Positions 1,264-4,909 of a stretch of 4,909 nt of DNA are shown here, one piece after another. Under the pieces are notes generated by a model, which saw only the letters and a program-made list of their open reading frames with translations, was not told the DNA's origin and ran no database searches. A program made the position numbers and the translations under genes. Origin of the DNA: a virus. Lineage: Duplodnaviria > Heunggongvirae > Uroviricota > Caudoviricetes. Each line of letters starts with the position of its first letter. The first letter of the stretch is position 1. The stretch is from the IMG/VR virus record IMGVR_UViG_2703718815_000009; one strand, 5' to 3'.

Positions 1264-1285
1264 GATAAGCACACAGATACAACGG

Positions 1286-1325
1286 CGAACAATGTGAAAC
1301 AACGTGGAACAACCACGAACAAGAG
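1286..1325 (+). repeat. Four tandem degenerate ~10-bp direct repeats (cgAACAAtgt / gaAACAAcgt / ggAACAAcca / cgAACAAgag), helically phased
   Basis: An AACAA core recurs at 1288, 1298, 1308 and 1318, an exact 10-bp period, in a T-poor, A/C-rich stretch. Phasing with the helical repeat suggests an iteron-like or protein-binding array; function unknown. Confidence 0.6.
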
Positions 1326-1416
1326 GCGAAAAAGCACACAGGTTTATAAGTGACTGATTTTATTTGTATGACTGGTTTTTTATACATTAGCGAATAACGC
1401 TTTAACGCGTGAGAAA

Positions 1417-1445
1417 AAAGGCATAAAACGAGATTTTATGCCTTT
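1417..1445. repeat. Inverted repeat / stem-loop with perfect 12-bp stem (AAAGGCATAAAA ... TTTTATGCCTTT) and 5-nt loop
   Basis: Read directly. On the + strand the stem is followed by GCATTAATATG, a weak U tract. On the - strand it is followed by TTTCTC. Candidate weak int terminator or regulatory hairpin in the int-alpA intergenic region. Confidence 0.4.
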
Positions 1446-1533
1446 GCATTAATATGAATTTAAATGATTTTATCCTGATTGTTCCTCTTTCTGTAAACCA
1501 TACGGACTCAACATTTGCCAACGCTGAATCATC

Positions 1534-1573
1534 CTGACACAATCAGACACAACCCAACCCAATAACCCACCCA
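1534..1573 (+). promoter_or_regulatory. A/C-rich 10-bp-phased direct repeats upstream of the alpA-like start, candidate regulator-binding region
   Basis: GACACAA occurs at 1536-1542 and 1546-1552, followed by AACCCAA / CCCAATAA / ACCCACCCAA. The strand is almost devoid of G and T, and the tract ends 33 bp upstream of the GTG start at 1606. A possible -35-like TTGCAT lies at 1444-1449, but I could not place a convincing -10. Confidence 0.4.
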
Positions 1574-1605
1574 ATGACTCTTTAAGAAACAACAAAGGGG
1601 GAATT

Positions 1606-2088: not shown

Positions 2089-2154
2089 AGTGGGAACAAG
2101 GGAAAACAAAAGCATCACCAACAATGCCACATTTGCGGCTGGTGGGCAATGCAA

Positions 2155-2878: not shown

Positions 2879-3223
2879 ATGGCTGGAACACAGCATACCC
2901 AAACTCACCCTAAATTTATATACACCTTCCTGGCGGTGCACCGTGATTGCATAGCTGACGGTAAAAGCACTGTACACGTAGCCGCTGATACGCTGGTTGA
3001 TGCCTGCGAGATGCTCAATGACATGGGTTATATCTCGGCAACATGGAAAGGGCGCGAAGAAAACACGCTGTTTATTCAGAAATGCGAAAACAATTTTATC
3101 TGGCGTTTTATCGCCCTGAGCACGGCACAACCGCGCGTGATTACCATTGAGGCCACCAGCGAACAGGAAGCACGCCAGCGTGATGGTATTCGCCGCCCGT
3201 ATTCGTCAGGGGGTACGCCATGA
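2879..3223 (+). CDS. Hypothetical protein (114 aa), first gene of the rightward operon
   Basis: ATG at 2879 preceded by GAGG (2867-2870) with 8-nt spacer; stop TGA 3221-3223 overlaps the next start (ATGA). This is the only credible part of the 458-aa frame 1847-3223 in the ORF track. No domain recognised. Confidence 0.7.
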   Translation: MAGTQHTQTHPKFIYTFLAVHRDCIADGKSTVHVAADTLVDACEMLNDMGYISATWKGREENTLFIQKCENNFIWRFIALSTAQPRVITIEATSEQEARQRDGIRRPYSSGGTP

Positions 3224-3480
3224 GCAATAACACCCGTCCGGACGCAGTCGCCGAAGCAATCAAAACACTGATTGATGCGCTGATTGATATTTCTGTTATC
3301 GCAGACAAGGCGCATAAGCACGCCACCAGTGAAACAGAATATGCCGGGGCTTTCGTTCCTCACTCACTGGCTGTTATGCAACTTAGTGCTGATATGGCAC
3401 TGAATGAGGCTAAAGCCATCCTGATTGCTGATTGTGAAAATGGGGGGGGGGTATGCGTGATGATCGTTTTAATGCCCTGA
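3220..3480 (+). CDS. Hypothetical protein (86 aa); 3' end runs through the G10 tract
   Basis: ATG at 3220 overlaps the upstream stop (ATGA); GGGGG at 3208-3212 gives an RBS at 7-nt spacing. Alanine-rich and predicted helical. The last 13 codons (GGGVCVMIVLMP) lie after the homopolymer and look like out-of-frame read-through, so the true C-terminus is uncertain. Confidence 0.55.
   Translation: MSNNTRPDAVAEAIKTLIDALIDISVIADKAHKHATSETEYAGAFVPHSLAVMQLSADMALNEAKAILIADCENGGGVCVMIVLMP
3442..3451. repeat. G10 homopolymeric tract at the junction of two overlapping ORFs
   Basis: Ten consecutive G read directly at 3442-3451, encoding GGG of the upstream ORF and ending 1 nt before the ATG (3453) of the next. 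G11 would fuse the two ORFs in frame (...ENGGGGMRDDRF...); G9 would end the upstream ORF at GGGYA-stop. Confidence 0.95.
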
Positions 3481-3686
3481 AACAGGAATTTGATGGCGCA
3501 CCGGAAGATACAGATATTGCGCTGTTATGTGTTGCTGACATGGTAAAAGCTGCAAGTTTTTTACTGGAAACCGCCGAACATTCAGGAACGGGTAGCGATA
3601 TTCTCAATATTGCGTCGGACTATGCGGAATATGTGGCAGAGGCGCGTTACAGAAGAAAATTCCCGGAGAATGTAAGCCATGTGTGA
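3453..3686 (+). CDS. Hypothetical protein (77 aa); possibly the C-terminal half of a frameshift-split or slippage-controlled gene
   Basis: ATG at 3453 immediately after the G10 tract; the 5' G residues of the tract (3442-3445) could act as a Shine-Dalgarno at ~7-nt spacing. Stop TGA 3684-3686 overlaps the next start (ATGTGTGA). Acidic and alanine-rich, no domain recognised. Confidence 0.5.
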   Translation: MRDDRFNALKQEFDGAPEDTDIALLCVADMVKAASFLLETAEHSGTGSDILNIASDYAEYVAEARYRRKFPENVSHV

Positions 3687-4217: not shown

Positions 4218-4909
4218 AACTGGCACCGAACTTAAAAAAACAGCCACACGACAAAATGACCGAAGTCATTATTTTTGCAGGTAGTGATGCCTGGGCGCAC
4301 GCGAAACAGTGGCAGGAACAGGACGGGCGACTTGCTGGCGACAACGTGCCACCTGTATGGCTTGGAGACAGCCAGCTTGACGAACTGGCAGACCTGAAAA
4401 TTATCGACGATGGTCGCTATTGTGTGCGTGTGTATAAAGCCGGGCACATCAGACCATCAAACATCAATGCCATCGGGCAAAAGCTGGCGGCGGCAGGTGT
4501 ACGGGATGCGAATTATTACCCCGAGGGAATGCACAGCCAGAAGCTGGAGAACTGGCACGACTACCTGCAACGGATCCGCGAACAGGCAGAGCGCGGGGAA
4601 ATTCTTACTGACGAGCAATACAGCCAGCGAAAAACCACGCTACCAATGAGCATTGGATCTGCAGGGTACGACACACAGCTTGATTATGTCGTTAAGGGCG
4701 TGATTCCGGCTAATTCATTGTGTAGCACATACGGCGCGAGCGGTTCCTATAAATCGTTCCTCGCGTGTTCCTGGGCGTGTCATGTTGCCACGGGTCGCCA
4801 CTGGGGAGGCCGCAGGGTGGCGCATGGTTCGGTGATGTATGTCGTCGGTGAAGGTGGCATTGGTGTCCCTCGTCGTATCAAAGCATGGGAAATCGTTAAT
4901 GATGAACGG
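4214..4909 (+). CDS. RepA-like replicative P-loop NTPase (AAA_25 / RecA-fold helicase family), 3' partial, runs off the window
   Basis: Open frame from ATG 4214 (AGGGG RBS upstream, coupled to the preceding stop) to the window end, 232 codons with no stop. Residues ~150-215, SLCSTYGASGSYKSFLACSWACHVATGRHWGGRRVAHGSVMYVVGEG, parallel the P-loop and following strand of RSF1010 RepA-type helicases (GGAGKSMLALQLAAQIAGG...GPVIYLPAED). The Walker-A-like motif GASGSYKS is deviant, with Tyr where the second Gly normally sits. The ~150-aa N-terminal region is unassigned. Confidence 0.75.
   Translation, partial: MKLAPNLKKQPHDKMTEVIIFAGSDAWAHAKQWQEQDGRLAGDNVPPVWLGDSQLDELADLKIIDDGRYCVRVYKAGHIRPSNINAIGQKLAAAGVRDANYYPEGMHSQKLENWHDYLQRIREQAERGEILTDEQYSQRKTTLPMSIGSAGYDTQLDYVVKGVIPANSLCSTYGASGSYKSFLACSWACHVATGRHWGGRRVAHGSVMYVVGEGGIGVPRRIKAWEIVNDER

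Follow-up and report, generated by a model that had tools for sequence, protein, structure and literature searches.

What is the function of the A/C-rich repeat tract that immediately precedes the alpA gene of this satellite? The tract occupies positions 1534-1573 of the window, i.e. of the whole stretch of 4909 nucleotides that was analysed, and reads CTGACACAATCAGACACAACCCAACCCAATAACCCACCCA. A sequence-only reading had described it as nearly devoid of G and T, with GACACAA occurring twice 10 bp apart, followed by CCCAA-type repeats and ending about 30 bp before an alpA-like start, and had proposed it as a candidate control site for alpA. This description was borne out. The tract contains 17 A, 18 C, 2 G and 3 T; with 35 of 40 positions being A or C it is the top 40-mer of the window (mean 20.6, sd 4.2), and the longest run without G or T in the window (1547-1562) is situated inside it. 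GACACAA is found only twice in the 4909 bases, at 1536 and at 1546, which gives a spacing of exactly 10 bp. CCCAA starts at 1553, 1558 and 1570, and 32 nt separate the 3' end of the tract from the GTG start codon of alpA at 1606. A repeat finder placed the two 10-nt GACACAAY units in register with an upstream 10-bp array at ~1275-1325 (family D1).

With int, alpA and a primase gene, the window represents the left end of a capsid-forming PICI satellite of E. coli. Its int-alpA region was matched in 876 of 5426 complete E. coli genomes. The best match, 99.8% identical, is an island adjoining roxA with capsid, protease and portal genes. The first genes of this island code for an integrase, AlpA, a YlcI/YnfO-like protein, an Icd-like protein, a DUF4222 protein, a primase, SSB and a ProQ/FinO-like protein; the later genes code for the major capsid protein, the prohead protease, portal, connector and HNH. 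This gene set identifies the best-match island as a capsid-forming PICI satellite. EcCICFT073 of strain CFT073 occupies the same integration site and is ~87% identical over the alpA upstream region.

The alpA-like reading frame proved to be a true alpA. It extends from 1606 to 1794 on the plus strand and codes for a winged-helix regulator/recombination directionality factor of the AlpA family (62 aa; PF05930, 66 bits), which is 97% identical to AlpA of EcCICFT073 and is labelled in RefSeq as helix-turn-helix transcriptional regulator. By reading the sequence, a Shine-Dalgarno motif AAGGGGG was located at 1595-1601 (plus strand), 4 nt 5' of the GTG. A PDB search returned one AlpA-family structure, 8C3T (E = 5e-7); a literature search for a paper describing 8C3T found none.

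Homologous upstream regions were compared from 21 islands. Seventeen of them carry the promoter described below (types A-D), whereas four more-distant islands are without it; the promoter alignment comprises 11 variants. Type A consists of the window, AST20, CFT073, EcPNK004 and ETEC1748, and type B of 93_0495, CD45, Shigella flexneri, PK8241, PKF4, RM9245 and strain 4. The O157:H7 strains and E597 form type C, which fits EcCIEDL933 by description, EDL933 itself having been left out of the comparison; type C' is UTAK-2 and type D is KY176. An AlpA-based scan of one genome per species gave 3 loci only, and a word-based protein search found 19 close relatives of AlpA. Four of these 19 were examined in context: int is separated from alpA by an additional gene, and the operators are palindromic GTGATATCAC instead, so that the four islands were unusable for extending the promoter alignment. 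A 14-mer scan of viral contigs yielded mostly chance matches and 5 real islands, all of type B or C.

A consensus scan of positions 1150-1900 identified a single sigma-70-like promoter, TTGCCA-17-CACAAT with a TG extension. The predicted -35 element TTGCCA is located at 1515-1520 and the extended -10 element TGaCACAAT at 1535-1543, both on the plus strand; the hexamer CACAAT (1538-1543) overlaps the first GACACAA unit (1536-1543). TTGCCA agrees with the consensus in 5 of 6 positions and CACAAT in 4 of 6, including the A at position 2 and the T at position 6. The same pair ranked first in a relaxed scan of both strands (1231-1660). TTTGCCA and ACAAT are unchanged in 11 of 11 variants, the -10 hexamer reading [C/A]ACAAT throughout, and the spacing is always exactly 17 nt. 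The spacer itself is ~35% identical between types A and C. Hexamers and spacing that remain fixed while the spacer drifts are a classic promoter footprint, and the invariant TTGCCA 17 nt 5' of [C/A]ACAAT makes the first GACACAAT the predicted -10 element of alpA. We consider it very probable that TTGCCA-17-CACAAT is the alpA promoter, PalpA. Judging from the position of the -10 element, transcription of alpA would start at ~1549-1551, inside the second unit GACACAAC. In the papers searched, no mapped PalpA hexamers, start site, operator or binding sites were found. Alternative AlpA-dependent promoters were sought just 3' of the distal array and 3' of the tract, and no conserved -10 was found at either place.

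The tract is thus located in the control region of alpA as had been proposed, but not upstream of the promoter: the -10 element and the predicted start fall within it, together with the leader's first ~25 nt. For the most part it is an ordinary promoter with its leader, belonging to a gene whose tight regulation was known before.

Two further elements are found upstream of the promoter. The conserved block TTCTGTAAA (1489-1497, plus strand) lies at a fixed distance of 17 nt 5' of TTGCCA and is unchanged in types A-C, while its flanks diverge. Two roles are conceivable for it: that of an upstream element (promoter or activator), or that of the -35 hexamer (TTTACA) in a promoter reading divergently on the minus strand, for which TTTACA-19-TAAAAT is the candidate. 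Between int and alpA there is a hairpin with 12-nt perfect arms (1417-1445; I5). All 8 distinct sequences contain it, each with six T's after the hairpin on the minus strand. This hairpin probably insulates alpA from int read-through and/or ends a short minus-strand RNA.

The part of the tract downstream of the GACACAA pair differs between the islands. The CCCAA-type repeats correspond to a tandem duplication AACCCAACCCAAT/AACCCACCCAAT (1551-1575, plus strand; Tandem Repeats Finder, two copies, period 12-13) and are present in type A only. In type B the respective stretch reads CCCAACGCAATAGAACACGAAAT, and 10 nt of the leader are lost in type C and 20 nt in type C' (UTAK-2). The distance from the -10 element to the downstream block GACTCTTTAAGAAAC is 32 nt in types A and B, 22 nt in type C and 12 nt in type C', i.e. 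it changes in exact 10-nt steps. In ETEC1748, a member of type A, the second unit is changed to GACCCAAC, which yields three successive CCCAA. The natural variants show the CCCAA part to be a type-A-specific leader duplication and not a conserved control site. EcCIEDL933 has been studied experimentally and is alpA-dependent (bioRxiv 10.1101/2022.09.08.507074). Since the type C islands match EcCIEDL933 yet are without CCCAA, the CCCAA part is probably dispensable. We conclude that the 3' two-thirds of the tract are a lineage-specific, low-complexity leader. Of the candidate control site proposed for the whole tract only the GACACAA pair looks like a real one: its units are conserved, whereas the CCCAA repeats have changed in type B and are missing from the O157-type islands and UTAK-2.

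The GACACAA pair resembles a family of boxes, GAACAAY/TTGTTCG, that recurs in these islands. The most prominent array of the window, which the sequence-only reading had listed as a first repeat tract, consists of five 10-bp-phased GAACAAY boxes directly after the stop codon of int (~1275-1325, plus strand), with the units GATACAACGG, CGAACAATGT, GAAACAACGT, GGAACAACCA and CGAACAAGAG. This distal array is kept in all variants, and F8492 adds a sixth 10-bp unit. A box matrix was built from 17 units of arrays other than the tract. With this matrix a single strong inverted box GGAACAATCA was found at 1476-1485 on the minus strand (10.5 bits, rank 5 of 9800), ~65-75 bp 5' of the predicted start; it is not conserved in CFT073 or in the O157 types. 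A phased pair, GGAACAAGGG and AAAACAAAAG, is situated 3' of alpA (2093-2112, plus strand), its first unit scoring 12.1 bits (rank 3 of 9800), and CFT073 has CGAACAAGGG 3' of alpA at position 6514 of its locus L002.

Further units are present outside the window. In the 18.6-kb locus L001 four units of opposite orientation (CCTTGTTCCA, GCTTGTTTCA, CGTTGTAGCC, CTTTGTGCAA; 7681-7720) are found directly before a doubled 12-mer, GGTGTAGTTAAT GGTGTAGTTAAT, which is followed by the start of int; the arrangement in CFT073 is likewise. Three more units of L001 (ATTTGTTCGT, GGTTGTTCCA, GGTTGTTCGG; 15104-15131) follow a strong terminator and lie 5' of the capsid gene. NDM4, a complete island with a divergent alpA allele, has the doubled 12-mer at each end, with 3-4 TTGTTCG-type units next to it. 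After int the NDM4-type island carries AATATC repeats and not GAACAA, and the post-int array is therefore not uniform across alpA lineages. From the annotation of P4, we infer that the doubled 12-mers near the island ends are integrase arm-type sites. The candidate AlpA-box family would extend from the att sites over the alpA promoter to the capsid operon.

How well do the two units of the tract fit into this family? Runs of [ACT]ACAA at exact 10-bp spacing occur three times in the window, compared with 0.12 expected from composition-preserving shuffles, and the tract pair is one of the three; in L001 there are five such runs (0.48 expected). The second unit (1546-1553, plus strand) covers the predicted start and is 10 bp in phase with the first. 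On the box matrix the first unit scores 7.0 and the second 5.9 bits, which are ranks 14 and 20 of 9800 positions (top 0.2%), as against 9.6-13.3 bits for the five distal-array units of the window. In types C and D the first unit is the canonical box GGAACAAT. The second unit retains GACAC in types A, B, C and C' and has GCAAC in type D. Its ACAA core is weakened in type B, and the second unit is GACCCAAC in ETEC1748, as mentioned, and GACACCTG in UTAK-2; from these two variants it follows that the ACAA core is not obligatory. The 10 nt 3' of the -10 element are conserved at ~7 of 10 positions (~70%) between types, compared with ~35% in the spacer. The 8-mer GACACAAC of the second unit also occurs in the distal array of CFT073. 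The 10-nt steps by which the islands differ in length 3' of the -10 element likewise speak for membership in the family. It should be considered that ACAAT is constrained anyway as the -10 hexamer, and the box likeness of the first unit may be a by-product. A change of GACACAAC to GACGTCAC in the second unit would spare the -10 element.

That the two GACACAAY units are 10-bp-phased weak copies of the GAACAAY/TTGTTCG box, and as such a candidate AlpA operator, is a reading we put forward tentatively. For the tract as a whole, core PalpA plus the first ~25 nt of the alpA leader with the GACACAA pair as an AlpA operator, we see the chances as about even; the promoter and leader probably carry a weak autoregulatory operator.

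The main alternative is that the tract is promoter and leader only. In this case the doubled GACACAA and the CCCAA repeats would be slippage duplications, RNA polymerase would be the sole binder, and the A/C richness would serve to keep the leader unstructured. The strong promoter footprint agrees with this explanation, as do the slippage-like steps in which copy number and sequence 3' of the -10 element vary, the weak fit of the tract units to the box matrix, the degenerate second unit in ETEC1748 and UTAK-2, and the ordinary folding of the leader (z ~0). Against it speak the ~70% conservation of the 10 nt after the -10 element next to spacers that are ~35% identical, and the presence of the same 8-mer in the distal array of CFT073. 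Moreover, phased ACAA pairs are rare by chance, and types C and D have a canonical box as their -10 unit. We regard the explanation by promoter and leader alone as rather unlikely.

If the GACACAA pair is an operator, which protein would bind to it? As regards the integrase, the arm-type 12-mer GGTGTAGTYANT had no match at up to 3 mismatches in 1500-1600 and only chance-level matches elsewhere in the window, and the tract was consequently rejected as an arm-type site. Box arrays located away from the arm-type sites fit a transcription regulator rather than the integrase. The layout of the boxes is like that of the sites of Xis/Vis/TorI-type excisionase-regulators, which makes AlpA the likely binder, and the helix-turn-helix region of AlpA is highly conserved among the islands having TTGTTCG-type boxes. 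The phased TTGTTCG boxes are best read as AlpA sites. Going by the site layout, AlpA likely binds the GAACAAY/TTGTTCG boxes.

Several known systems are arranged in a comparable way. The closest is PalpA of EcCICFT073 (Fillol-Salom et al. 2018, PMC6092414), a homologous locus with the same TTGCCA-17-CACAAT, followed by GACACAAC CCAACCCAAT. In P4, four phased (G/T)TCCG units are found beside the annotated doubled 12-bp arm repeats and int, which is the same layout as in the island, and three 10-bp repeats TGNCTTTAA are located upstream of vis, the alpA homologue of P4. The P4 boxes (G/T)TCCG and TGNCTTTAA differ in sequence from the GAACAAY of the island. Vis binds to attP and to its own promoter region, and the helper excisionase Cox activates the promoter PLL. 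Vis acts as a repressor of PLL; for AlpA, by contrast, activation of PalpA is reported. A further difference is that PLL depends on P2 Ogr/P4 Delta with a TGT-N12-ACA dyad, while PalpA looks like an ordinary sigma-70 promoter.

Similar arrangements of small repeats at an att site and at promoters are known for 186 Apl (pR-pL), KplE1 TorI (attL/PintS) and ICEMlSym RdfS. TorI, the KplE1 excisionase, recognizes the cores GTTCG, GATCG and GTCCG at three sites 2 nt apart (PMC2951348); the core GTTCG resembles the TTGTTCG of the island. In general, recombination directionality factors recognize direct repeats spaced by one helix turn, and several of them act on promoters as well (PMC7498355, PMC11963761). 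Binding is cooperative, the individual site being weak (PMC7498355, PMC2951348, PMC11963761). In its arrangement the candidate box family matches the regulator sites of Vis, TorI, Apl and P2 Cox. The likeness has its limits: RdfS is without a consensus motif while the island boxes have a clear one, and Apl and TorI repress, in contrast to the net activation of PalpA by AlpA.

The published behaviour of alpA bears on the sign of regulation. AlpA of EcCICFT073 is needed for induction and activates its own promoter (PMC6092414). Transcription of alpA rises in lambda or phi80 lysogens upon induction but does not respond to mitomycin C alone (PMC6092414). EcCIMP1 is reported to behave in the same way (PMC11773190). 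The sequence-only reading had assumed that alpA is kept silent until a helper or SOS signal; the helper part agrees with these data, and the SOS part is contradicted by the response to helper phage and AlpA (PMC6092414). We mapped the published primers: the AlpA-activated PalpA-lacZ fragment covers 5855-6310 of the CFT073 locus L002, corresponding to ~1198-1663 of the window (PMC6092414). The reporter pJP1290, which is longer but has an identical 5' end, responds to the induced helper prophages lambda and phi80 and not to mitomycin C when a helper prophage is absent (PMC6092414). Because the PalpA-lacZ fragment holds both arrays, it cannot separate their effects. The published arabinose-driven pBAD-alpA clone of EcCICFT073 starts at ACACAACCCAACCC, i.e. 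at window position 1547, and the leader is therefore included in that expression construct.

With AlpA as the binder, the following course of events may be envisaged. The first GACACAAT supplies the extended -10 element TGaCACAAT 17 bp 3' of TTGCCA, and transcription would begin within the second GACACAAC at ~1549-1551. AlpA would nucleate at the stronger boxes and, once accumulated, cooperatively fill the weak pair over -10/+1, thereby feeding back on its own promoter. By its position the -10/+1 pair would cap alpA transcription, and the net auto-activation that has been published would be due to the five-box distal array. The weakest step of this account is the sign of regulation at the -10/+1 pair. 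Binding over -10/+1 would be expected to repress, but in the published work the net effect of AlpA on the fragment as a whole is to activate.

A different binder would be a helper-encoded protein of the Xis/Cox/TorI type, which would bind to the phased repeats (the tract and/or 1276-1325) and turn on alpA in the manner of P2 Cox at P4. Read as its reverse complement, the second unit has GTTGTGT in common with the stretch ATGTTGTGTTTT of the lambda P arm, which we take to be the Xis site X1; this match, though, is a 7-mer found post hoc. In P4, vis is transcribed from a late promoter that P2 Cox activates. The three TGNCTTTAA repeats of 10 bp 5' of vis, which likewise speak for a helper protein, presumably fit the Cox-box consensus (Saha et al. 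1989). As described above, alpA needs an induced helper prophage and not mitomycin C alone, and no report of the inducer was found (PMC6092414, PMC11773190); a literature search also gave no published answer as to the helper inducer of alpA. Excisionase cross-talk among co-resident elements is documented (PMC11773190). On the other hand, the helpers lambda, phi80 and Kapi1 have different excisionases, yet all of them induce, and repeats that overlap the -10 element would be at an odd position for an activator. Direct activation by such a helper protein is in our view quite improbable. A combined form, in which the boxes are an AlpA regulon that takes in the att arms, the promoter of alpA, the early region and the capsid operon, and in which the -10/+1 pair and the distal array trigger induction via a helper excisionase-like protein that nucleates or mimics AlpA binding, as Cox of P2 does at PLL, is improbable too. 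If true, a helper-excisionase trigger would answer how helper phages induce Gram-negative PICIs.

The tract could also act as a nucleic-acid structure or at the level of RNA: as a CA-rich translational enhancer, through pairing of its C-runs with the GGGGG of the Shine-Dalgarno motif, or through a G-quadruplex on the template strand that impedes transcription. The tract would be transcribed, and the A/C bias of the region is kept in every type (0.61-0.81). In the minimum-energy fold the CCC at 1566-1568 pairs with the GGG of the ribosome site. Just downstream, the conserved block GACTCTTTAAGAAAC (1576-1590, plus strand) provides a CUCUUU able to pair with AAAGGG of the Shine-Dalgarno region. 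ACTCTTTAAGAAAC is identical across types A-C, and a small CUCUUU/AAAGGG hairpin is predicted in types B and C. By eye, a ribosome-site-sequestering hairpin of other sequence was recognized in KY176 and in the distant islands L024, L028 and L020. However, the folding energy of the leader was no better than that of shuffles in the four variants folded (z ~0). An Rfam covariance-model scan of the whole window gave no match with E up to 1.

As for the G-quadruplex, the canonical motif GGGTGGGTTATTGGGTTGGG at 1553-1572 on the minus strand (template strand, four C-runs) is the sole (G3N1-7)x4 motif both in the window and in the 18.6 kb of L001; 6% of shuffled windows contain such a motif. It hinges on one base specific to the window/L001 allele: compared with EcCICFT073, of which the window is a capsid-forming relative, one base change adds the fourth C-run. 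A conserved G-quadruplex element was rejected because the motif is missing in the 7 other variants checked (CFT073, AST20, ETEC1748, types B-D). Both the C-runs and the quadruplex are missing in CFT073 (strict motif), in types B, C and D and in the O157 type. We give a function at the level of structure or RNA very little probability. A DnaA-box-like TAATCCACC in CFT073 was discarded as too weak by eye (2 mismatches).

Finally, a -10-like hexamer just 3' of the real -10, as at the loading sites of lambda Q and P. aeruginosa AlpA, could cause a sigma-70-dependent pause that loads an antiterminator (lambda PR'/Q, PalpB/AlpA), and indeed the second hexamer of type C is CACAAT at ~-2 to +4 (PalpB: CACGAT at -1 to +5; PMC9371919) and the helper phages are lambdoid and encode Q; but the pause hexamer is not conserved, reading CACAAC in type A and CACATC in type B without the essential final T, and P. 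aeruginosa AlpA, with eight helices (functional residues to position 142) and a reported 21 Q-like fold, appears from the descriptions unrelated to the 62-aa PF05930 AlpA of the PICIs, so that this extremely improbable explanation was rejected.

The analysis provides concrete coordinates for tests, namely the conserved TTGCCA-17-CACAAT, a candidate weak operator pair over the promoter and a phased box family. These are of interest as alpA is the master switch of the PICI satellites of Gram-negative bacteria, elements that interfere with phages and disseminate genes for virulence and defence. If AlpA does not bind to the boxes, the tract amounts to no more than a promoter with a low-complexity leader behind it. 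If AlpA binds to them, the wiring of the satellite would follow the pattern of P4 Vis, TorI and Apl, and the search for the helper signal could narrow to ~330 bp.

Directly 3' of the int stop codon, at window positions 1276-1325, five GAACAAY boxes follow one another in 10-bp phase. They make up the first repeat tract pointed out in the sequence-only reading. This array was kept in all variants compared, with a sixth unit in the island variant F8492, and probably serves as the principal AlpA array of the int-alpA region.

Boxes of the TTGTTCG type were also found at the island ends, where a common architecture consists of three or four phased boxes directly adjoining a doubled 12-mer (GGTGTAGTTAAT x2). 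This arrangement occupies 7629-7748 in the roxA-int intergenic region of L001, the locus nearly identical to the window, 4516-4635 in the CFT073 locus L002, and both 6838-6905 and 17300-17400 in locus L151. The complete NDM4-type island carries boxes and doubled 12-mer at both ends. The layout is shared by P4, in which (G/T)TCCG boxes adjoin the annotated doubled arm repeats.

Downstream of alpA a phased box pair, GGAACAAGGG and AAAACAAAAG, is situated at 2093-2112, within a stretch annotated by RefSeq as a truncated pseudogene; AlpA may act here on the transcription unit that comes next. Three phased TTGTTC boxes also precede the major capsid gene, behind a strong terminator hairpin (L001 15060-15131), and their presence there suggests that the protein proposed to act at the other boxes controls the capsid operon too.

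Further elements were identified between int and alpA. A conserved hairpin (1417-1445), behind which the minus strand reads T6, is present in eight of eight distinct variants, and a candidate minus-strand promoter, TTTACA (1497-1492)-19-TAAAAT (1472-1467), makes use of an invariant CTGTAAA block. The predicted promoter together with the hairpin and T6 (1411-1497, minus strand) might give rise to a divergent transcript about 50 nt long, for which Rfam has no match. At 1394-1412 the window contains the imperfect palindrome ACGCTTTAACGCGT, in place of which other variants carry the perfect palindrome CACTCTTTAAAGAGTG. Since the dyad symmetry is maintained despite changes on both sides, the palindrome would function as an operator or else form a small hairpin.

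In every lineage an upstream anti-Shine-Dalgarno segment is able to pair with the alpA ribosome-binding site (window 1577-1601; directly upstream of alpA in L010 and in the more distant islands L024, L028 and L020). The paired sequences differ from lineage to lineage: CUCUUU/AAAGGG, CUCCA/UGGAG, GCUCCUUGC/GCAAGGAGC, GGAAUGUCCUUG/CAAGGACAUUCC, and CGUCCUCG/CGAGGACG, the last with a U run after it. These lineage-specific pairings suggest that translation of alpA is masked.

Four TGTGATTC-type half-sites (2714-2794) sit between a divergent YlcI/YnfO-like gene and a rightward operon. Two of them are direct 11-mers, TGTGATTCAGT, at a distance of 45 bp, and the other two are inverted; the early promoters probably have their operators here. 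A run of ten G (3442-3451) lies where the ORFs 3220-3480 and 3453-3686, both small and rightward, overlap; this slippage-prone homopolymer could shift reading frames.

L021, an NDM4-type island of a divergent alpA lineage, shows three 10-bp-phased AATATC repeats after int, with no GAACAA boxes there, and two CGAAC units in phase with each other about 120-137 bp ahead of alpA (repeat sites at 214-245 and 445-470). In the more distant islands L020, L023, L028 and L029 an additional gene of 255-300 aa separates int from alpA, and two perfect GTGATATCAC palindromes precede alpA. This arrangement implies that alpA would be regulated differently in these islands.
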